From the IMG/VR virus record IMGVR_UViG_2718218397_000005: DNA of 47,888 bases; one strand, written 5' to 3'. The position numbers and the translations under genes were made by a program. This document shows, piece after piece, positions 317 through 47,888 of this stretch (positions within the stretch are counted from its first letter, which is position 1; each line of letters begins with the position of its first letter). The notes under the pieces were generated by a model. It had not been told where the DNA came from. It made no database searches and saw only the letters and a program-made list of their open reading frames with translations. Source of the DNA: a virus. Taxonomy: Duplodnaviria; Heunggongvirae; Uroviricota; Caudoviricetes.

Positions 317-907
317 ATGTCTCGAATTTTTGCTTACTGTCGGATATCAACGCTGGATCAGACCATCGAAAATCAACGCCGGGAAATCGAAAGTGCAGGT
401 TTTAAAATCAAACCTCAGCAAATAATCGAAGAACACATTAGCGGCTCAGCAGCAACCAGTGAGCGTCCTGGTTTTAACCGGTTGCTTGCTCGCCTGAAAT
501 GTGGTGATCAATTGATTGTGACAAAACTGGATCGCCTTGGTTGTAATGCAATGGATATCAGGAAAACAGTGGAACAACTGACCGAAACAGGTATCAGAGT
601 GCATTGCTTAGCATTGGGGGGCATTGACCTGACCAGTCCAACAGGAAAAATGATGATGCACGTAATTTCAGCAGTCGCTGAATTTGAACGAGACCTTTTA
701 CTTGAACGCACTCATTCCGGGATAGTAAGAGCCCGCGGCGCAGGGAAACGTTTTGGTCGACCACCTGTGTTAAATGAAGAACAGAAACAGGTGGCATTCG
801 AACGAATTAAGTCAGGTGTAAGTATAAGTGCCATTGCCCGGGAATTCAAAACCTCGCGGCAAACCATTTTAAGAGCCAAAGCAAAACTTCAGACACCTGA
901 CATATAA
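317..907 (+). CDS. pin: Serine recombinase, DNA invertase (Pin/Gin/Hin family)
   Basis: 196-aa ORF; N-terminal resolvase catalytic motif YCRISTLDQ with Ser nucleophile; C-terminal HTH ([17 protein letters not shown]); sits beside stf-tfa as in e14/Rac/Qin-type prophages. Confidence 0.85.
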
Positions 908-27112: not shown

Positions 27113-28195
27113 ATGAAAAAATTAACAGTGGCAATTTCTGCTGTAGCTGCATCAGTACTGATGGCGATGTCTGCTCAGGCAGCTGAAATTTATAATAAAG
27201 ACAGTAACAAGCTGGATCTGTACGGGAAAGTTAATGCTAAGCACTACTTCTCCTCTAATGATGCAGATGATGGTGATACTACTTATGCCCGTCTTGGCTT
27301 CAAAGGTGAAACCCAAATCAACGATCAACTGACTGGTTTCGGTCAGTGGGAATATGAATTCAAAGGCAACCGCGCTGAATCTCAAGGTTCCTCCAAAGAT
27401 AAAACCCGTCTTGCCTTCGCTGGCCTGAAATTCGGTGACTACGGCTCCATCGATTATGGCCGTAACTACGGTGTAGCATACGATATTGGTGCATGGACCG
27501 ACGTTCTGCCAGAATTCGGTGGCGATACCTGGACCCAAACAGATGTATTCATGACTGGTCGCACCACAGGTGTTGCAACTTATCGTAACAATGACTTCTT
27601 TGGTCTGGTTGATGGTCTGAACTTTGCTGCTCAGTATCAGGGTAAAAATGACCGTACTGACGTAACTCAAGCTAATGGTGATGGTTTCGGTTTCTCCACT
27701 ACTTATGAGTATGAAGGTTTCGGCGTAGGTGCAACCTATGCTAAATCTGACCGCACTAATAATCAGGTTATCTACGGTAACAACGGTCTGAATGCTTCTG
27801 GTCAAAATGCTGAAGTATGGGCAGCTGGTCTGAAATATGATGCGAACAACATCTATCTGGCCACCACCTATTCTGAAACCCAGAACATGACTGTTTTTGG
27901 TAATAACCATATTGCCAACAAAGCACAAAACTTCGAAGCTGTTGCACAATATCAGTTCGACTTCGGCCTGCGTCCATCCGTTGCTTACCTGCATTCTAAA
28001 GGAAAAGACTTGGGTGTTTGGGGTGATCAGGACCTGGTTGAATATGTTGATGTAGGTGCAACCTATTACTTCAACAAAAATATGTCCACTTTTGTTGACT
28101 ACAAAATCAACCTGATTGATAAGAGCGATTTCACGAAAGCATCTGGCGTTGCTACCGATGATATCGTTGCTGTAGGTATGGTTTACCAGTTCTAA
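27113..28195 (+). CDS. nmpC: Outer membrane porin, OmpC/OmpF family (phage-borne Lc/NmpC type)
   Basis: 360-aa ORF with signal peptide ([23 protein letters not shown]), porin motifs, C-terminal ..VAVGMVYQF; sits between Q and S on the opposite strand as in DLP12/PA-2. Confidence 0.85.
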
Positions 28196-29743: not shown

Positions 29744-31048
<1,305 letters not shown>

Positions 31049-32959: not shown

Positions 32960-34486
32960 TCAAAAATAAACCTCACCATCAACCATATATTTGAGAGTAC
33001 TTATCGCCTGCTGGGCGGATATTGTTTTCATTAAAGGATAGTGTTTAAAAACAATGCCATTCATAAAATAGATATCACAGGTTTTATTATCTGTATTGAT
33101 TATGATTTTTTCGAATGTTTTATAGGCAAGTGTACGACATAGCTCTCGCCCATTTTTACTGGTTAAGTCAATAGCATGAAAATCACCAAGTGAACTCACC
33201 GCTTTACTCTTCAAAGTTTTTAATGATACAGAAGCCCTTCGTAATTCCTTATCTAATACTCTGATTTTTTCTGCTATAGCGGTAACTTCAGGCGCAACAG
33301 ATAATGCAGCAATTAAATTATTAATTTTCATCTGGAGCTCAATAATTTTCAACTCTAAAGTTTCATTAGCATCTTTCTTGTTTTCAACTGGTTGGATTTT
33401 ACTACAATTAAAAAGCAACTCATTAATGATATTATAATCAACCAAATCTCTCTTTATTGATGGCCTGTCACATCGATGCAGTCTTCTCATCGGACAAACA
33501 TAATAGCCATGCAAACTTCCAGATACCGCATGAACAATCATGGTATTACCACAAGCCTCGCACTTCATAACTGTTCGAAGTAGATTTATCAACATAGGAT
33601 TTTTGCTACTATTGCTAATACCAAAAGGTGCCAACCGAATTTCCTGTACAGCGTAAAACAAATCATCTGATATGACTCTGGGATAATAGCCAGCGATTTC
33701 ACTTATTCCTTTACCTCTTGCACGATATGAAGGTACGCATATACCTATCAGAGCTTTATTCGCTAATAATTTTTCAATTACAGAAGGTCCCCATGCACTT
33801 TCTTTTCCTGAGAAATTCTTTACAGCATGATCATTTAAATACTTGGCTATTGCATTCAATGAGCGCCTTTCCATCCTGAGTTTAAAAATTAGCTCAATAG
33901 TTTTCACCCTGTCGGGGTCTGGAACAAAAGCCGTTCTTTTGTCATCTAAGGAGAGCCATCTCGGACAAGACGCCGTCATAATCGTACCTGATTCCAGTGC
34001 ATCCTGCCGTTTTTTCTTCCATGATAATTTAACCCGACTTGACTTTATCTCGCTTTCTTCATTTGCCCTTTGTGCTATAAGTATGGCTTTTATTAATGAA
34101 TATGGCTCATTCAAAGAGTCAATATTATAGACTGTATTGTCGCAAAGAGTTATAACATCAATACCGTGATTCAAAATCAATTTCAGACGTTCAATCGCTT
34201 CACCGACTTTTTCTCTTGAAAGTCTGTCCAGACTTTCAACTAACAATGTAGTTCCTGGCAATATATAACCATGCTCTATAGCATCTAAAAATTCCGAAAA
34301 AGCTCCTGATTGTGCATGCTTTCCTTTGAATGCACTTAATCCTAAATCTTCATATGTTATGGTATCAAGATAATAATCACTATTTACCTTTAACCATTCA
34401 GCAATAAGTCTTCTCTGTCGGTTTAATGAGTCGCCAGACATCTGACCTGGTGATGAAAATCGCATATATGCTATGGCTTTTTTCAT
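32960..34486 (-). CDS. ybcK: Large serine recombinase (YbcK-like)
   Basis: 508-aa ORF; N-terminal resolvase catalytic domain (AIAYMRFSSPGQ..), recombinase domain, zinc-ribbon (CEACGNTMIVH...YYVCPMRRLHRCDRP), C-terminal coiled coil; AT-rich. Confidence 0.8.
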   Translation of the reverse strand: MKKAIAYMRFSSPGQMSGDSLNRQRRLIAEWLKVNSDYYLDTITYEDLGLSAFKGKHAQSGAFSEFLDAIEHGYILPGTTLLVESLDRLSREKVGEAIERLKLILNHGIDVITLCDNTVYNIDSLNEPYSLIKAILIAQRANEESEIKSSRVKLSWKKKRQDALESGTIMTASCPRWLSLDDKRTAFVPDPDRVKTIELIFKLRMERRSLNAIAKYLNDHAVKNFSGKESAWGPSVIEKLLANKALIGICVPSYRARGKGISEIAGYYPRVISDDLFYAVQEIRLAPFGISNSSKNPMLINLLRTVMKCEACGNTMIVHAVSGSLHGYYVCPMRRLHRCDRPSIKRDLVDYNIINELLFNCSKIQPVENKKDANETLELKIIELQMKINNLIAALSVAPEVTAIAEKIRVLDKELRRASVSLKTLKSKAVSSLGDFHAIDLTSKNGRELCRTLAYKTFEKIIINTDNKTCDIYFMNGIVFKHYPLMKTISAQQAISTLKYMVDGEVYF

Positions 34487-37155: not shown

Positions 37156-37701
37156 TCATATTGCCCCCAGCATGGTGGTGACCATCGCCATCAATGGACC
37201 AGCCAGATCCGGGTCCACTCGAAACATCGACACAATGCCTTCACTCATCTCCTTCAGTTTCTGGTGGCGTGGTGCGTTGAGAATGACCGCCTGCTTTGCC
37301 TCACAGAGTTCCTTTTCCATTTCAGCCAGCCGAGCCATGAAGCTATCCTGCTCAACCAGGTGGCCGCGATATTCCAGCGGTAGTACCGCCAGAATTGCCG
37401 GGGTCAGTTCACGCACGTTATTTCGGTATTTTTCAGAATCGAATTTGTTATCGAGGAAGCGGAACAGCTTCTGGCGTGCACGGCTGACATCATCAGGGAA
37501 ATCGATGGTGCCGCCGCCCTGCTCCCGATACTCATTCACAATGAGTGCGGCAACAACATCCTGATTATCTGCAGCCGACCAGGCGCGAACGGCATCACGG
37601 ATTTTTTCGTGGCCTGGCACCTGTTTTATTTGAGAACGATTTATCACCGCAGTCGGGCTAAATCCGCTAGTCTGTTGGTATGTAAGTGGTTGCATAATCA
37701 T
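37156..37701 (-). CDS. YdaT-like protein in the cII position
   Basis: 181-aa ORF; ..NEYREQGGGTIDFPDD.. and ..LTPAILAVLPLEYRGHL.. resemble remembered Rac YdaT segments; directly downstream of cro-like gene. Confidence 0.5.
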   Translation of the reverse strand: MIMQPLTYQQTSGFSPTAVINRSQIKQVPGHEKIRDAVRAWSAADNQDVVAALIVNEYREQGGGTIDFPDDVSRARQKLFRFLDNKFDSEKYRNNVRELTPAILAVLPLEYRGHLVEQDSFMARLAEMEKELCEAKQAVILNAPRHQKLKEMSEGIVSMFRVDPDLAGPLMAMVTTMLGAI

Positions 37702-37725: not shown

Positions 37726-37959
37726 TTAGGCGGCAGAATTACTCGCGTTAAACAATGGTGCAAGGTCGGGACGAATATCTGCTGGTTTAATCTTTCCACC
37801 AGTGGCTGAGACAATTTTCATTACATAGCGGGCATCAATTCCGCCACCGTGTAGCCAACGCCAAACAGTGGGCTGGGCTACACCGCATAGATCTGCCAGT
37901 CGTTTTTGACTACCTGTAATACTGATTGCGAGTTGAATGGTTTGATTTGTCATTATCAA
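37726..37959 (-). CDS. Cro-like HTH regulator (YdaS/Cro family)
   Basis: 77-aa ORF with HTH (..KRLADLCGVAQPTVWRWLHGGG..); divergent from cI across an operator-rich intergenic region. Confidence 0.75.
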   Translation of the reverse strand: MIMTNQTIQLAISITGSQKRLADLCGVAQPTVWRWLHGGGIDARYVMKIVSATGGKIKPADIRPDLAPLFNASNSAA

Positions 37960-37984: not shown

Positions 37985-38063
37985 ATAATAGCAATGCGTA
38001 TTAACCCAATCAATAGCAAAACGTGTTTTGACCATCAATACGCAAGCGTATAAATTAAAACTT
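37985..38063. promoter_or_regulatory. OR operator region with divergent pR / pRM promoters
   Basis: Dyad elements TAATAgcaatgcgTATTA, ATCAATAgcaaaacg and TACGCAAGCGTA; pRM-like -35 TTGACC (38028-38033) and -10 TAAATT (38051-38056) placing the start at the cI ATG (leaderless). Confidence 0.55.
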
Positions 38064-38756
38064 ATGAAAAAAGAAACTCTTGCTGATCGCTTAAACCTAG
38101 CGATGGAACAATCTGGAATGTCTCAAGGCGCTCTTGCAAAGGCGTCTGGCGTAGCTCAACCCACAATCTGGAGACTGACAAGCGGCAACGCACGCGGCTC
38201 AACAAAAATTGTTGAAATAGCTAATGCATTGGGTGTTCGAACAGAGTGGCTCTCATCAGGCATAGGCCCGATGAGAAATGACGGTCAACAATCAGGGAAG
38301 CCTGCTGCCAACCATCCCAAATACTTCAAGATTGACGTTCTTGATATAGAAGTGAGTGCCGGGCCGGGAGTCATCAACCGTGAGTTTGTAGAAGTTCTAC
38401 GCTCGGTTGAGTACTCGTTTGACGATGCTCGTCACATGTTCGATGGCAGGAAGGCAGAAAATATCCGCATCATTAACGTACGCGGTGACAGCATGTCAGG
38501 AACGATCGAACCAGGTGATCTTCTGTTCGTTGATATCACTGTTAAATCTTTCGACGGTGATGGTATCTATGCGTTTCTGTATGACGACACAGCCCATGTT
38601 AAGCGCCTGCAAATGATGAAGGATAAACTGCTGGTTATCTCTGATAACAAGAGCTACTCACCGTGGGACCCAATCGAGAAAGACGAGATGAACCGGGTGT
38701 TTATCTTCGGGAAAGTTATTGGGAGCATGCCGCAAACATACAGGAAACATGGATAA
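38064..38756 (+). CDS. cI: CI-type repressor (HTH_XRE plus S24 LexA-like autoprotease domain)
   Basis: ORF 38028-38756 from TTG; probable start MKKETLADRLNLAMEQSGMSQGALAKASGVAQPTIWRL..; C-terminal peptidase S24 motifs (..RGDSMSGTIEPGDLLFVD.., ..HVKRLQ..). Confidence 0.85.
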   Translation: MKKETLADRLNLAMEQSGMSQGALAKASGVAQPTIWRLTSGNARGSTKIVEIANALGVRTEWLSSGIGPMRNDGQQSGKPAANHPKYFKIDVLDIEVSAGPGVINREFVEVLRSVEYSFDDARHMFDGRKAENIRIINVRGDSMSGTIEPGDLLFVDITVKSFDGDGIYAFLYDDTAHVKRLQMMKDKLLVISDNKSYSPWDPIEKDEMNRVFIFGKVIGSMPQTYRKHG

Positions 38757-38836
38757 TCAATAATAGCCTGATTAGACATTTGGGTGATGAGAGAGGCTGC
38801 AGAAACGCAGCCTGATTCTAAAATGGGATATAAAAA

Positions 38837-39298
38837 ATGAGAATACTAGGTGTTAGGGCGGCGCCCAAAGTTACATCTTTTGTTGTATATTGCACTGATG
38901 AGTCTGCACTCAAATGTGTTGATGTTATTAAAATACCTTCGACCTTAGACACACCAGAAAAATTAAAGTATGTGCGAAATAACATCCTCGACATTCTTAA
39001 TTTATATAATGTTGAATTAGCTGCTATACGCGTTACTGAATCAAACTCTGATAATCTTAGCATTGACCGCCTTTATATAGAAGCTGTTATTCAAGAAGCA
39101 TTTTCAAGCAGTGATGTAAGAAGATATTACACCATTAGAAAATCTGGTATGAAGTCATCATTGAACCTAACAGAGATCGAGTATAAAGAAATATTGAAGT
39201 CACACCGTAATATAAATGGAATCGATAATTCTGGTTTTACAACTGAAACAAATGAAGCTGTTTTGGCTGCACTATCTGCGGAGGTAAGGGGATGCTGA
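38837..39298 (+). CDS. Hypothetical protein, first gene of a cI-linked cassette (rexA position)
   Basis: 153-aa ORF MRILGVRAAPKVTSFVVYCTDESALKCVDVIKIPSTLDT...; AT-rich; 7-nt overlap with the kinase gene. Confidence 0.55.
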   Translation: MRILGVRAAPKVTSFVVYCTDESALKCVDVIKIPSTLDTPEKLKYVRNNILDILNLYNVELAAIRVTESNSDNLSIDRLYIEAVIQEAFSSSDVRRYYTIRKSGMKSSLNLTEIEYKEILKSHRNINGIDNSGFTTETNEAVLAALSAEVRGC

Positions 39299-40338
39299 CT
39301 CCATACAAAAGAGCTGATGTAGCATTCGAATGGATTCGTGATCTAGAAGAACAGGGTTGTTTTTCAAAAGTATATCTGGCTCATGACAGACACCTAGCTC
39401 ATGACTTGGTGATTAAAGAAATAGAAAAAAAAGAAAACATTAACCACGACGACTACTTTAATGAAGCAAGGCTTCTCTATAAACATGCACATCCAAATAT
39501 TGTGCAAGTTCAGTATGCTGCTCAATGTGAGAGCAATATCTATATAGCCATGCCATTTTATCATAATGGTTCGCTAAACCAATTAATAAAAAAGATTAAT
39601 CTTACGAGCAGGGAGATAATACGGTATTCTATTCAATTTTTAAGTGGGCTTTATCATATACACTCAAAAGGTCTTATGCATTTTGATATAAAACCTAATA
39701 ACATCATGATATCAAACAGAAATGAGGCCATGCTATCTGACTTTGGATTGTCTCAGTTAGTCAATGAGGAATCGAGAGCTGCGCCTGAGTTTGGATATCA
39801 TTTTCATGTGCCACCGGAATATTTTTCTTTATCAACAAATGATTATAATTTCACATATGACATATATCAGGCAGGATTAACCATATATAGAATGTGTGTT
39901 GGATATGATAATTTTGAAAGAGAAAGATCTGCATTTAGAACGATTGAACAACTCAGAGAGTCGATAATTAATGGCTCCTATCCATTAAAAGAGTATCCTT
40001 CCCACATACATAAAAAATTGATAACAATAGTAAACAAATGCATTCATGTAGATCCAAATGAAAGATATCAATCCGTACTAGACGTACTAAACGATCTCTC
40101 AGCTATAAGTGATGGCGTTCTTGACTGGCGTCTACAGATGACAAAACCAACTAACGGCACATATGAATGGCAAAAAAAGTCTGGGGACGTTATACTGTCT
40201 ATAGTTTTTGACGCAGAAAATTCGTCTACTACTGGTTTTCGTTTATACGATGGTGGGCGGAAAAGGCGTGCTACGAACTTAACAATATCCTCAGGATGTA
40301 CCCCTACAAAACTGTATAGGTTATTAAAGGATAACTGA
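39292..40338 (+). CDS. stk: Eukaryotic-like (Hanks-type) protein kinase
   Basis: 348-aa ORF with beta3 Lys (LVIKEI), catalytic loop HFDIKPNN, DFG motif (LSDFGLS) and PPEYF activation-segment motif. Confidence 0.8.
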   Translation: MLTPYKRADVAFEWIRDLEEQGCFSKVYLAHDRHLAHDLVIKEIEKKENINHDDYFNEARLLYKHAHPNIVQVQYAAQCESNIYIAMPFYHNGSLNQLIKKINLTSREIIRYSIQFLSGLYHIHSKGLMHFDIKPNNIMISNRNEAMLSDFGLSQLVNEESRAAPEFGYHFHVPPEYFSLSTNDYNFTYDIYQAGLTIYRMCVGYDNFERERSAFRTIEQLRESIINGSYPLKEYPSHIHKKLITIVNKCIHVDPNERYQSVLDVLNDLSAISDGVLDWRLQMTKPTNGTYEWQKKSGDVILSIVFDAENSSTTGFRLYDGGRKRRATNLTISSGCTPTKLYRLLKDN

Positions 40339-40340
40339 TC

Positions 40341-40505
40341 ATGAAAAAGTGCGAGGAAGTAAGTAAGCTGCCTCGCAGACGTGATGCAGCATTAGCGGTT
40401 CCCTACAAAAAAGATGAGTTCATAAGCTCTTCTGATGACAAAAAATTTTCAAAGGCAAAAAATTTTGCATCTACATCTCTAAAAGATAAATACTTTAAGA
40501 TCTAG
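40341..40505 (+). CDS. Small Lys-rich ORF immediately after the kinase (speculative)
   Basis: Manually translated 54-aa ORF MKKCEEVSKLPRRRDAALAVPYKKDEFISSSDDKKFSKAKNFASTSLKDKYFKI; ATG 2 nt after kinase stop, AAGGA 9 nt upstream; stop abuts the terminator. Confidence 0.35.
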   Translation: MKKCEEVSKLPRRRDAALAVPYKKDEFISSSDDKKFSKAKNFASTSLKDKYFKI

Positions 40506-40532
40506 CCCGGCCACCGTGCCGGGTTTTCTTTT
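40506..40532 (+). terminator. Rho-independent terminator ending the cI-kinase operon
   Basis: Stem CCCGGC (40506-40511) / GCCGGG (40518-40523), 6-nt loop, then TTTTCTTTT. Confidence 0.7.
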
Positions 40533-40654
40533 GTCCCCTCCCCTCATCACACAAACCGTTCGAAAAACCACCACAACCTCCCTTCAGTTATCGCTATGCG
40601 ATGCAAGTCACAAAATTAATTCTTTTTGCTATCAAACAGTTAATATCAAAACAC

Positions 40655-40710
40655 ATCAATCAATAGCAATAAGTATTGATACCACCAATAGCAATAGCTA
40701 TTATCACCAT
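40655..40710 (+). promoter_or_regulatory. Putative OL operators and pL promoter
   Basis: Dyad ATCAATAgcaataagTATTGAT (40659-40680) and palindrome AATAGCTATT (40693-40702) share CAATAGCAA with OR; -35 TTGATA (40676-40681), 17-bp spacer, -10 TATTAT (40699-40704). Confidence 0.5.
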
Positions 40711-43028: not shown

Positions 43029-43183
43029 CGCATCCTCACGATAATATCCGGGTAGGCGCGATCACTTTCGTCTACTCCGTTACAAAGCGAGGCTGGGTAT
43101 TTCCCGGGCTTTCTGTTATCCGAAATCCGCTGAAAGCCCAGCGGCTGGCTGAGGAGATAAATAATAAACGGGAGGCGGTATGA
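43025..43183 (+). CDS. Small hypothetical protein (lambda small-orf-like)
   Basis: Manually translated 52-aa [55 protein letters not shown]; ATG overlaps exo stop, stop overlaps next gene start. Confidence 0.4.
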
Positions 43184-44424
43184 ACGAGGCAGCAATAATT
43201 ATTGTCCCAACAGACATCAGCAAGAAAATTCGCGAAATAGAAGAGTCCTACAACAGATATATAAATGAATTTCGCATCCCTAATGATCATAAGATAATCG
43301 TGAATTATTCAGCAGGAAAAGACAGCACTGCCACACTCGCAGTGGCGCACACATTATTCGGCAAACAGGTACATGCTGTTATGGCAGACACGGATAATGA
43401 GCATAATCTAACTGTCGAATTCGCCAGGAGCATTCATGAGCAGATCGGTTGTAGCCCTGTGCAGGTTGTGAAGCGGATTTACACTGAAGAAGATTTTGCC
43501 AAACGACGAATTTATCTGCAAAAAAACTGGTCTAAACGACAGATGCTCCGCATGGGAGCATACCGTGGCATAGTCATGCCTTCCCTCGCACGTTCTGACA
43601 CCAAATTCGGGCAAGCCTGGAAGCGCACAGCAGAACGCTGGGGAATTGAGTTCGAAACTGCTCTTGATGCTGCGCTTTCCGTTATGCACCCATCCGGTAA
43701 TAGCTTTTTGGATTGCTCCCTTCTGCATGGCAAGTTCCCTATGCTGCGCGACCGATTCTGTACAGACGAACTGAAAATTCAGATAGCTTTCGACGCAGCC
43801 ATAAAGCCGCTCCTTGATGCTGGCGATGTTATCGTACAATGGTCTGGTGTTCGCGCGGATGAGTCCTCTAAGCACGCTGGATATGAGAGGTTTTCCCGCG
43901 ATATGCGCGACGCCGATTTTCTCTACAACTTCCTGCCGCTCCACAAATGGACGGCTGAGGACGTATTCGCAGTTCACAAATATTTCGGAATTAAGCCAAA
44001 TCCACTTTATATGCAAGGTGCGTCTCGTGTTGGCTGCATGAATTGCGTGCTATGCAACAAAGAGGAAATTGCAGAGACGGCTGCGCGCTGGCCAGAGCAC
44101 ATCAAAAAGCACAAACAATGGGAGTTGAAGGTACGCCTTGCTAGTAGATGGGTACACTGGATGAGCGTAGGAGAGATAAGCCAACGCTGGATGAAACAGT
44201 TCAATCTGCCACTTGGTCGAAATATTCAACTTTTTGGGCTAAAACCTGATGTGCAACACATCGACTGGTCAGGATTTTATGGTCCTCGTGGAGATCTTAA
44301 TTCTCCGGGTGTTTATGAAGTCGTAGAGTGGGCAAAAACAGGGCGCGGTGGCAAGGTCTACGATCTTGTAAAAGCAAGTCTCGATATAGAGGTTTGCTCT
44401 TCACGCTACGGTCTGTGCGAATAA
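43180..44424 (+). CDS. PAPS-reductase-like PP-loop ATP pyrophosphatase family protein
   Basis: 414-aa ORF with PP-loop motif (VNYSAGKDST) and later Cys residues (..RVGCMNCVLC..). Confidence 0.7.
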   Translation: MNEAAIIIVPTDISKKIREIEESYNRYINEFRIPNDHKIIVNYSAGKDSTATLAVAHTLFGKQVHAVMADTDNEHNLTVEFARSIHEQIGCSPVQVVKRIYTEEDFAKRRIYLQKNWSKRQMLRMGAYRGIVMPSLARSDTKFGQAWKRTAERWGIEFETALDAALSVMHPSGNSFLDCSLLHGKFPMLRDRFCTDELKIQIAFDAAIKPLLDAGDVIVQWSGVRADESSKHAGYERFSRDMRDADFLYNFLPLHKWTAEDVFAVHKYFGIKPNPLYMQGASRVGCMNCVLCNKEEIAETAARWPEHIKKHKQWELKVRLASRWVHWMSVGEISQRWMKQFNLPLGRNIQLFGLKPDVQHIDWSGFYGPRGDLNSPGVYEVVEWAKTGRGGKVYDLVKASLDIEVCSSRYGLCE

Positions 44425-44435
44425 TACTAAGTTAT

Positions 44436-45038
44436 TTACTCATTATTTTTTGATAATACAACTTTCTGCCAAGTTATCTGGTTACGTTGAAAACTATCTT
44501 TATTTATTGACGTAACTCGCAATGTTTTCAGACCTAACTGAGACGCTAACTCAAGAAGTTCCTCAGTATTAACAACGTTAATGTTTCTATCTGGTTCGGG
44601 AGGTCCTAAGCGCAATGTAATTATCATTCTCCCATTCAATGTTAAAAGATCAGTTAGCGTCTCTAGTGAGATTTTTTGCTCTTTTTTTGAAAGATGCATC
44701 CATACAGCACTGACTAAAATAAGGTCGAACTTTAGATTCATTGCTTTAACACTATGAAGAAAAGGCAATGAATCATCTAACCATATAATATGGTTAGATT
44801 TATAATATGAAGATGCCAAATTTCGCATCTTTTCACTTGGTTCAACAGCTATTACTTTATAACCTAATTCATCTAACGCAGCAGCATCACGGCCGGAACC
44901 TGAACCGACATCCAAAGAGACACCCTTAGATTGTAAAATAAACTCTTCAACATCCTGAAAGATAGAGTAAAAATCAAGTGATATATAATCGGCAAATAAG
45001 CGATCAGCATTATTGTCATAAAACTTCCACGAAGTCAC
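44436..45038 (-). CDS. Class I SAM-dependent methyltransferase (TehB-like architecture)
   Basis: 200-aa ORF with motif I (VSLDVGSGSGRDAAAL) and post-I acidic residue (VIAVEPS); no DPPY/NPPY motif, so probably not an N6/N4 DNA methyltransferase; AT-rich. Confidence 0.7.
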   Translation of the reverse strand: MTSWKFYDNNADRLFADYISLDFYSIFQDVEEFILQSKGVSLDVGSGSGRDAAALDELGYKVIAVEPSEKMRNLASSYYKSNHIIWLDDSLPFLHSVKAMNLKFDLILVSAVWMHLSKKEQKISLETLTDLLTLNGRMIITLRLGPPEPDRNINVVNTEELLELASQLGLKTLRVTSINKDSFQRNQITWQKVVLSKNNE

Positions 45039-46526: not shown

Positions 46527-46869
46527 GGCCTGTCAGTTTCTCAAGATATCCAGACCTACCGCTACCAACTGGATACGAACAGGCCGCCTACAGGCAACAC
46601 GCAAAGACCCCACTAAACCAAAATCTCCTTACCTCACAACGCGACAAGCCTGCATTGCGGCGCTTCAGTCTCCGCTGCATACTGTCCAGGTGAGCGCGGG
46701 TGATGGCATAACAGAGGAAAGAAAATGTCACTCTTCCGCAGAAATGAAATATGGTATGCCTCGTATTCGCTCCCGGGCGGGAAACGAATTAAGGAATCTC
46801 TTGGCACAAAGGACAAGCGGCAAGCTCAGGAGTTGCACGACAAGCGAAAAGCAGAACTCTGGCGAGTAG
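46498..46869 (+). CDS. xis: Excisionase-like (AlpA/Xis-type HTH) protein
   Basis: ORF 46468-46869; probable start [31 protein letters not shown].. after GAGGT SD; reading frame runs 145 nt into int, so the C-terminal part may be non-native. Confidence 0.55.
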
Positions 46870-47888
46870 AAAAGCTAGGGGATTTACCTGATGTCACTTT
46901 TGAAGAGGCCTGCCTAAGATGGCTTGAGGAAAAAGCTGATAAAAAATCTCTCGATTCAGATAAAAGCCGGATTGAGTTCTGGCTTGAACATTTTGAGGGT
47001 ATAAGGCTTAAAGATATCTCGGAGGCAAAGATTTACTCTGCTGTAAGCAGAATGCATAACAGAAAGACGAAAGAAATATGGAAACAGAAAGTTCAGGCCG
47101 CCATCAGGAAAGGTAAAGAACTGCCTGTTTATGAACCAAAGCCAGTATCAACTCAGACAAAGGCAAAGCATCTTGCCATGATAAAGGCCATTCTCCGTGC
47201 TGCAGAACGCGACTGGAAGTGGCTGGAAAAAGCGCCTGTCATCAAGATACCAGCGGTCAGAAACAAGCGAGTCAGATGGCTGGAAAAGGAGGAAGCAAAA
47301 CGCCTTATTGATGAGTGCCCCGAACCACTGAAATCTGTCGTCAAGTTTGCGCTGGCAACTGGTCTGAGAAAGTCGAACATCATAAATCTGGAATGGCAAC
47401 AAATCGACATGCAGCGACGAGTTGCCTGGGTGAATCCAGAAGAGAGCAAATCAAACCGCGCCATTGGTGTGGCGCTGAACGATACCGCCTGTAAAGTGTT
47501 GCGTGATCAAATAGGCAAGCATCACAAATGGGTGTTTGTACATACCAAGGCGGCTAAGCGAGCAGATGGAACATCAACGCCTGCGGTCAGGAAGATGCGC
47601 ATCGACAGCAAGACATCATGGCTATCAGCTTGTCGTCGTGCAGGAATTGAAGATTTCCGTTTCCATGACCTCAGACATACCTGGGCAAGCTGGCTGATTC
47701 AGTCAGGCGTCCCATTATCAGTGCTTCAGGAAATGGGCGGATGGGAGTCCATAGAAATGGTTCGTAGGTATGCTCACCTTGCGCCTAATCATTTGACAGA
47801 GCATGCGAGGAAAATAGACGACATTTTTGGTGATAATGTCCCAAATATGTCCCACTCTGGAATTATGGAGGATATAAAGAAGGCGTAA
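46725..47888 (+). CDS. int: Tyrosine site-specific integrase (DLP12 IntD-like)
   Basis: 387-aa [38 protein letters not shown]...; C-terminal catalytic residues (..[11 protein letters not shown].., ..[15 protein letters not shown]); window ends at its stop codon. Confidence 0.9.

Follow-up and report, generated by a model that had tools for sequence, protein, structure and literature searches.

A probable allele of the phage 933W Stk exclusion module, carried as AT-rich cargo behind an unrelated repressor, and a candidate three-gene kinase cassette

The virus record IMGVR_UViG_2718218397_000005 (Caudoviricetes; 47,888 nucleotides (nt), hereafter the window) carries a protein kinase gene and two small partner genes directly downstream of a cI-type repressor gene. 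Judged by its sequence, this cassette is a known system, namely the Stk cassette of phage 933W itself rather than an analogue of it. We consider it very probable that the region represents an allele of the Stk abortive-infection (exclusion) module known from 933W, carried as exchangeable AT-rich cargo by a lambdoid prophage of a different immunity. The system is already known, and the linkage of the kinase to its two partners is an added lead for which no description was found; Stk appears to belong to a conserved module of three genes.

The cassette consists of three open reading frames (ORFs) between the repressor and a terminator, with the following features:

38064..38756, plus strand: cI-type repressor with HTH_3 and Peptidase_S24 domains (Pfam, S24 1.5e-18 and HTH_3 1.5e-06).
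38774..40531, plus strand: AT-rich cargo segment common to 933W (L0083-stk-L0081-tM), delimited by megablast/blastn.
38794..38815, plus strand: small hairpin GGCTGC-agaaac-GCAGCC in the cassette leader, read from the sequence.
38837..39298, plus strand: ORF of 153 amino acids (aa), RuvC-fold protein, homologue of 933W L0083 and phi24B 'res' (ORF list).
39292..40338, plus strand: 348-aa ORF, Hanks-type protein kinase, 933W Stk allele (ORF list).
40341..40505, plus strand: 54-aa ORF, basic peptide with an isoelectric point (pI) of 9.8, 933W L0081 homologue, third gene of the operon.
40504..40534, plus strand: intrinsic terminator that ends the cI-cassette transcript, 933W tM (terminator scan; 933W 'tM' annotation).

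The first-pass annotation of this DNA had described a 153-aa, an overlapping 348-aa and a 54-aa ORF on the plus strand downstream of cI, closed by a terminator, and all of them were recovered in place. The repressor ORF starts at TTG 38028 in the mechanical ORF list and at an ATG equivalent to 38064 in RefSeq, where the repressor of an identical E. coli locus is annotated as 'XRE family transcriptional regulator'. The 153-aa gene begins 80 nt after the repressor end at 38756, on the same strand. It overlaps the kinase gene by 7 nt (ATGCTGA), and the 54-aa ORF starts 2 nt past the kinase stop, with AAGGA 10 nt upstream; the three cassette genes are translationally coupled. According to the terminator scan, the terminator stem has 8 bp with 6 G-C pairs (40504-40525) and is followed by the T-run TTCTTTTG.

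When window positions 38774-40531 were compared with the L0083-stk-L0081-tM interval of 933W, the DNA identity was 96.9% over 1758 bp, terminator included. The 933W record annotates this interval as L0083, stk ('serine/threonine kinase'), L0081 and 'tM; putative terminator for pM transcript', and the gene order, the spacing and the terminator in the window are equal to this annotation. The kinase is identical to 933W Stk at 336 of 348 residues (96.6%) without any gaps, and all 12 substitutions lie outside the catalytic motifs; the 153-aa protein is 98.7% identical to L0083 (2 changes) and the 54-aa peptide 92.6% identical to L0081 (4 changes). A megablast search of phage records returned 55 records that match the same interval at ~97%, nearly all of them Stx-converting phages. 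The record of phi24B annotates the first cassette gene as 'res, resolvase'. The likeness to 933W Stk had been pointed out before as a parallel case, and the likeness holds; the region is, however, not an analogue but the 933W cassette itself.

The window repressor shares 19% identity with 933W CI and is unrelated to it. Both 933W and phi24B carry an extra 113-aa DUF3024 gene between cI and the RuvC-like gene (L0084 / vb_24B_13c; 2653-2994 of the 933W locus L001), whereas window positions 38757-38836 hold no L0084 equivalent and the first cassette gene, unlike in 933W, directly follows cI. Since it is missing from the window, L0084 / vb_24B_13c lies outside the conserved module. At the codon level, the kinase gene differs from 933W stk by 12 nonsynonymous and 12 synonymous changes, the RuvC-like gene from L0083 by 2 and 8, and the 54-aa ORF from L0081 by 4 and 3, respectively. 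The numbers are small; read from the codons, the kinase may be under relaxed or diversifying selection. The cassette is present in 473 of 5426 complete E. coli genomes, and the E. coli records fall into 251 that are at least 99% identical to the window cassette and 223 at 95-99%. For the window itself, we thus report an annotation result, the 933W Stk module as found in ~9% of complete E. coli genomes.

The surroundings of the cassette show how it is carried. Its G+C content is 35.8%, against 50.3% for the window. Among E. coli prophages that share the repressor and the kil-gam-bet backbone, the slot 38757-40503 is variable: the cargo is a 534-aa SIR2-family protein in one sister prophage (L070), a hypothetical protein with an ASCH-domain protein in the second (L071), and a HipA-family kinase with DUF3037 in the third (L072). 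DUF6932 and other hypothetical genes were found among further slot matches. The sister prophages lose homology to the window at 38755-38764, where cI stops; two of them regain it at 40503-40506, at the base of the terminator, and the third, L070, at 40745. The Stk cassette is one of several alternative cargoes. These are joined to the backbone at the cI stop and, for two of the three sisters, at the terminator, which doubles as the right-hand recombination joint of the slot. As the homology breaks at the cI stop and at the terminator and the cassette is AT-rich, we regard it as swappable cargo. Its presence behind a different repressor in a non-Stx lambdoid prophage means that it moves as a unit between immunity regions.

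To the left of the repressor, on the other strand, lie cro-, YdaT-, O- and P-like genes, and to the right of the cassette lie kil, gam, bet and exo; the cassette therefore occupies the position of rexAB in lambda. SIR2-domain proteins and HipA-type kinases are recurrent in defence and toxin systems, so the alternative cargoes support reasoning from this position, and the evidence supports a slot that behaves as a defence-cargo hotspot. The proposal made at first pass, of a kinase exclusion cassette co-oriented with the repressor in the rexAB position, gains support both from the identity with 933W and from the cargo slot.

The kinase has all the motifs that had been read from its sequence earlier (beta3 Lys, HFDIKPNN, DFG and PPEY), here assigned to K42 (VIKE), E58, H130-F-D132-I-K134-P-N-N137, D150-F-G and P174-P-E-Y177. 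Pfam Pkinase (PF00069) matches with 158.6 bits against a cut-off of 31.7, and the catalytic apparatus is intact. Because the catalytic residues are invariant across 47-58 homologues, the family members are predicted to be active enzymes and not pseudokinases. The HFDIKPNN catalytic loop is of the Ser/Thr type, although 933W Stk is reported as a tyrosine kinase. The protein comprises a kinase domain (residues ~12-275) and a small beta/alpha C-terminal domain (276-348), modelled with four beta-strands at 290-326 and a helix at 338-347. None of the kinase matches aligns over more than 266 residues, and the C-terminal domain, which is modelled confidently, therefore appears private to the family. 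Its mean identity is 23%, against 44% for the kinase domain, with W279 and W293 invariant.

Matches of the kinase to defence models fall within the kinase domain. The PADLOC matches were mad6 (7.9e-49) and PD-T4-6 (4.6e-36), both over residues ~20-290; for PD-T4-6, the best PADLOC model scored 122.9 bits, confined to the kinase domain, and the PADLOC set comes here without a curated cut-off. The NCBIfam score was 113.4 bits for MAD6, against a cut-off of 460, and 41.7 for PglW, against 990. An assignment of the kinase to MAD6 or PglW was rejected, as the PADLOC and NCBIfam matches span only the generic kinase domain. For the 153-aa and 54-aa partners, no meaningful match to a PADLOC or NCBIfam model was obtained.

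The partners come into view when the module is followed beyond E. coli. A pattern-plus-tblastn scan with one genome per species gave 66 loci of the RuvC-like gene, in Proteus, Tatumella, Xenorhabdus, Psychromonas, Marinobacter, Haemophilus, Acinetobacter, Pseudomonas, Methylobacterium, Bradyrhizobium, Paraburkholderia, a cyanobacterium (Scytolyngbya), Polyangium and Fodinibius; the loci span Alpha-, Beta- and Gammaproteobacteria, besides the cyanobacterium, Polyangium and Fodinibius. In 66 of 66, the RuvC-like gene is immediately followed, on its own strand, by an ORF for a full-length Stk relative (phmmer E 1e-131 to 1e-19, where the weakest values come from truncated contigs). Both genes could be delimited in 62 loci, of which 57 show an overlap of 1-8 nt between the kinase start and the RuvC-like stop (8 nt in 41, 4 nt in 7 and 1 nt in 9). 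Pairwise identities of the RuvC-like proteins and of the kinases are correlated (r = 0.895). The reverse comparison, made for two sampled kinase homologues from Elizabethkingia anophelis and P. aeruginosa, found a RuvC-like ORF preceding each; these ORFs match the family profile at 3.5e-48 and 9.4e-52, respectively, and keep Arg7 (see below).

In Elizabethkingia anophelis (Bacteroidota; L079, 1-4691), the trio stands right after a restriction pair of the McrBC type (AAA_5 and RE_LlaJI) and is followed by ArdA and serine recombinases, an arrangement that resembles a defence island on an integrative element. When 142 flanking proteins were clustered and tallied by Pfam domain, no fourth conserved gene emerged; the neighbours were otherwise unrelated and included 8 scattered helix-turn-helix (HTH) regulators, 4 S24 repressors, a small number of phage structural genes, helicases of the restriction type and housekeeping genes. 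As no further neighbour is conserved, the unit of inheritance is the three-gene cassette. A defence system of a RuvC-like protein and a kinase met nothing relevant in the searched literature, and no description of the tripartite module was found there, in PADLOC or in NCBIfam. We put forward tentatively, at a little less than even confidence, that Stk, rather than acting alone, is the effector of a tripartite defence module distributed over at least four phyla. Its parts would be a RuvC-fold pseudonuclease with an invariant Arg in place of the metal-binding Asp, the kinase with its private C-terminal domain, and a fast-evolving basic peptide of 45-75 aa with conserved Arg/Ser and aromatic motifs; as sensor and as inhibitor or pseudosubstrate, the pseudonuclease and the peptide would restrain the kinase up to the arrival of a phage trigger.

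The nature of the first partner is relevant here, as its gene had been said to encode a protein of no recognisable family. This needs correction: profile and structure searches, suggested at first pass for both partner products, matched the 153-aa protein to phrog_3875 (E 1.9e-90) and gave it a RuvC/RNase H-like fold, and one RefSeq record names it 'RuvC family protein'. The likeness to RuvC itself is distant. Pfam RuvC (PF02075) scores 13.6 bits (E 0.062), below the cut-off of 22.2, hhalign of the 153-aa family against RuvC gives a probability of 1.5%, and the identity is 12-15%. The N-terminal hhalign alignment sets an Arg7 invariant in the family opposite the catalytic Asp7 of RuvC. At the end of beta4, the place of RuvC Glu66 is taken by a nearly invariant Arg65, with an invariant Glu68 three residues on; the position equivalent to 138 is variable, and the start of the last helix keeps one conserved acid, Glu140. 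With positions E66, 138 and 141 mapped by secondary structure and strand order rather than by superposition, the acidic catalytic tetrad of RuvC (D7, E66, D/H138 and D141 in E. coli) was not found in the family.

These residues have to be weighed against the annotation of the gene as 'res' or 'RuvC-like Holliday junction resolvase' in several records, which would make it an active resolvase for phage recombination that stands beside the kinase by chance. We consider this highly improbable. Besides the replacement of Asp7 by an invariant Arg7, the nearly invariant Arg65 in the place of E66 and the sub-threshold Pfam score, the family is acidic (median pI 5.6), which is unusual among junction-binding resolvases. 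Moreover, the gene belongs to the lysogenic cI transcript and stands apart from gam, bet and exo, the recombination genes on the far side of pL, and the kinase follows it in all 66 loci, many of which are not phage-like. Given Arg7, Arg65 and the acidic pI, we read the protein as a pseudonuclease scaffold or sensor rather than as a working Holliday-junction resolvase; to judge by these sequence features, it is probably a pseudonuclease partner of the kinase.

The second partner had been listed as a possible peptide only, and the evidence now speaks for a gene. The 54-aa peptide matches phrog_4063 from end to end (3.4e-38), and a search of 1.8 billion proteins gave six representative clusters of 50-55 aa, aligned end to end and down to 52% identity. 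Independent gene calls place a 53-aa ORF in Proteus and a 59-aa ORF in Klebsiella after the kinase, in prophages where the trio again follows a repressor. Of 58 distant loci, 52 have a 45-75 aa ORF whose start lies -6 to +10 nt from the kinase stop, against 43 of 493 (8.7%) for the stops of other long ORFs in the same loci. The distant peptides are basic (median pI 10.05) and share an N-terminal M-x-K-I-K-N-x(3)-Y-x-x-R-S-x-L and a C-terminal aromatic motif (Y/F-hydrophobic-x-F/W), and phmmer links 48 of them mutually at E <= 0.1. The window peptide is of similar build (MKK...PRRRDAAL...KYFKI). By sequence, it is connected in a chain with peptides of Proteus (1e-6), Xenorhabdus (7.8e-4 and 0.013) and Tatumella (0.23), which are the top four among 10,692 six-frame ORFs and all of which follow the kinase.

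The other possibility is that this stretch is not a gene but an untranslated 3' region before the terminator, open by chance. It would agree with the lack of any Pfam, NCBIfam or PADLOC family for the ORF, with its omission by RefSeq PGAP in several identical E. coli loci, and with the 4 nonsynonymous to 3 synonymous codon differences from 933W. The start 2 nt after the kinase stop with AAGGA upstream, the full-length phrog_4063 match with conserved homologues, the ORFs of 53-59 aa placed there by independent gene callers in Klebsiella and Proteus prophages, and the recurrence at the kinase stop far above the control, with 48 peptides linked by sequence, all oppose it, and we hold it to be very unlikely. 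The third gene is real and conserved. The small ORFs at distant loci are its positional equivalents and probably fast-evolving homologues.

What is known of the behaviour of this module comes from 933W and phi24B, here as stated in papers that cite the primary work on 933W. In 933W, stk is co-transcribed with cI, and Stk aborts infection by HK97 (PMC3564112, PMC3681748). Stk has low activity without infection and is described as a tyrosine kinase that is turned on by HK97 infection (PMC3564112, PMC3681748, PMC6356687); deletion of stk left the tested virulence phenotype unchanged (PMC3681748). In phi24B, stk is under pRM control and its expression is restricted to stable lysogeny (PMC3430580), and expression of 'res', the L0083 homologue, in lysogens was shown earlier (PMC4651098). 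Two phi24B products downstream of cI, P2 and P3, identified by two-dimensional polyacrylamide gel electrophoresis, have lysogen-restricted transcripts that far outnumber those of cI (PMC3342100). If PMC4651098 and PMC3342100 are combined, P2 and P3 would be vb_24B_13c and res. Nothing in the searched literature was found to assign a function to L0083/res or L0081, in agreement with the earlier view that the partner and the trailing peptide are uncharacterised.

By analogy with these reports on 933W and phi24B, the window cassette would be transcribed from pRM in lysogens, and in the window itself the promoter scan is consistent with it, as it lists nothing promoter-like on the plus strand from the cI stop to the first cassette gene. 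The leader hairpin at 38794-38815 (6 bp, GC-rich, without a T-run) is common to 933W and was not flagged by the terminator scan; it might be a processing or stabilising element, a role that would bear on the phi24B lysogen report of a transcript downstream of cI far outnumbering that of cI.

The mechanism that we prefer has the kinase as toxic effector. In a lysogen, the repressor promoter would be read through the three cassette genes up to the terminator, and the kinase, by orthology with 933W, would be present yet nearly silent. A product of a superinfecting heterologous phage (HK97 in the case of 933W) would switch it on, and runaway protein phosphorylation would abort the infection at the cost of the infected cell. 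To judge by their conservation, both partners, the RuvC-like protein as well as the small peptide, would be obligate subunits; most likely, the acidic RuvC-fold protein and/or the basic peptide would keep the kinase switched off or link it to the trigger. Candidate determinants of specificity are the fast-evolving peptide and the kinase's variable C-terminal domain. The peptide is furthermore a candidate pseudosubstrate or antitoxin; the conserved Tyr/Phe motifs of the peptide make the former role plausible for a tyrosine-phosphorylating kinase.

A potentially toxic kinase with small overlapping partner genes is also what toxin-antitoxin loci look like, and a HipA-family kinase pair sits in the same slot of sister prophages. 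The cassette could accordingly be an addiction or lysogenic-conversion module that reprograms the host or stabilises the prophage, with exclusion as a side effect. This we find unlikely, given that the 933W orthologue is reported to abort HK97 infection (PMC3681748, PMC3564112, PMC6356687), and that the low activity of Stk without infection and the unchanged virulence phenotype of the deletion (PMC3681748) point the same way. In addition, the same slot carries SIR2, and other loci adjoin restriction genes. Toxin-antitoxin behaviour and abortive infection are in any case compatible and not mutually exclusive.

Several points weigh against an exclusion module of three cooperating parts. The exclusion activity and its trigger at the window locus are extrapolated from 933W, and the 12 amino-acid changes in the kinase allele could give it a specificity different from that of 933W. 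In 933W, stk is reportedly the gene that was analysed genetically; if stk alone is sufficient, the partners may be dispensable for exclusion of HK97. Strict linkage is evidence of co-inheritance and falls short of physical or regulatory interaction. Finally, sequence similarity ties the window peptide to homologues from enterobacteria, Proteus and Xenorhabdus only: a hidden Markov model of 54 distant peptides misses it (E > 10), the iterative search from the window peptide towards the distant ORFs stops at Proteus, and hhalign gives a probability of 7%.

The classic Stk phenotype is attributed to one gene, whereas the kinase is inherited with two partners in every locus examined. If the partners do act as sensor and regulator, this would explain both the silence of the kinase in lysogens and the specificity of the trigger, and tools that label the first gene as a resolvase, and probably those that treat the kinase as generic kinase-defence, would need correcting.

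The control region around the repressor and the cassette has the following further features:

38009..38019, plus strand: operator-like motif ATCAATAGCAA in the cro-cI intergenic region, oR side (exact-copy search).
38013-37985, minus strand: pR-like promoter (promoter scan).
40659..40704, plus strand: operator-like repeats at 40659, 40684 and 40690, overlapping the pL-like promoter.
40676-40704, plus strand: pL-like promoter TTGATA-17-TATTAT (promoter scan).

Exact copies of the 11-mer ATCAATAGCAA occur in the whole window at 38009 and 40659 only, the latter past the terminator. The position of cII is taken by a protein with a YdaT_toxin domain (37156-37701, minus strand; 2.6e-29), which adjoins a Cro/YdaS-like HTH gene (37726-37959, minus strand). 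No N-like antiterminator ORF is evident between pL and kil/gam. Owing to the YdaT_toxin and YdaS-like genes and the lack of an evident N-like ORF, the immunity region is Rac/YdaS-YdaT-like and not lambda-like.

Elsewhere in the window, a large serine recombinase of 508 aa (Resolvase, Recombinase and Zn_ribbon_recom; 32960-34486, minus strand) lies just outside the replication genes, and a tyrosine integrase is encoded at 46725-47888; the former could be the sign of a nested element or of a further integration system. Beyond exo, the early-left region holds a 414-aa PAPS-reductase-domain protein (43180-44424, plus strand) and, convergent with it, an S-adenosylmethionine (SAM)-dependent methyltransferase (44436-45038, minus strand), which may be DNA-modification or anti-restriction cargo. 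We also noted a prophage-borne general porin (Porin_1, 3.5e-152; 27113-28195, plus strand), an IS3-type transposase fragment (rve; 30302-31048, plus strand) and a Pin/Gin-like invertase adjoining the tail-fibre genes (317-907, plus strand).

Among known systems, the 933W module (Tyler & Friedman 2004, Friedman et al. 2011) shares with the window the three genes, their order, the terminator and the co-orientation downstream of the repressor, whereas the host phages differ, that of the window being a YdaS/YdaT-type lambdoid prophage and 933W a short-tailed Stx phage. The RexA/RexB system of lambda has the same position and logic, with pRM-driven accessory genes between cI and oL/pL that provide exclusion and are expressed in the lysogen, according to PMC3564112. 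The Rex effector is a membrane ion channel and that of the window a protein kinase, and no Rex family appeared among the Pfam, PHROGs and PADLOC matches of the three proteins, so that the likeness is positional only. RuvC resolvases have the catalytic Asp7, whereas the 153-aa family has an invariant Arg there, is acidic and is always encoded before a kinase. HipA-type modules likewise join a kinase to a small co-translated partner, and a HipA-family gene with DUF3037 occupies the identical slot; compared by Pfam labels only, HipA belongs to a branch of the kinase superfamily different from the Hanks/eukaryotic protein kinase type and has different partners. A Hanks-type kinase domain is likewise used in anti-phage defence by PD-T4-6 of E. 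coli, Stk2 of Staphylococcus, MAD6 of MADS and PglW of BREX; these are single-gene kinase defences, whereas the module in the window consists of three genes.

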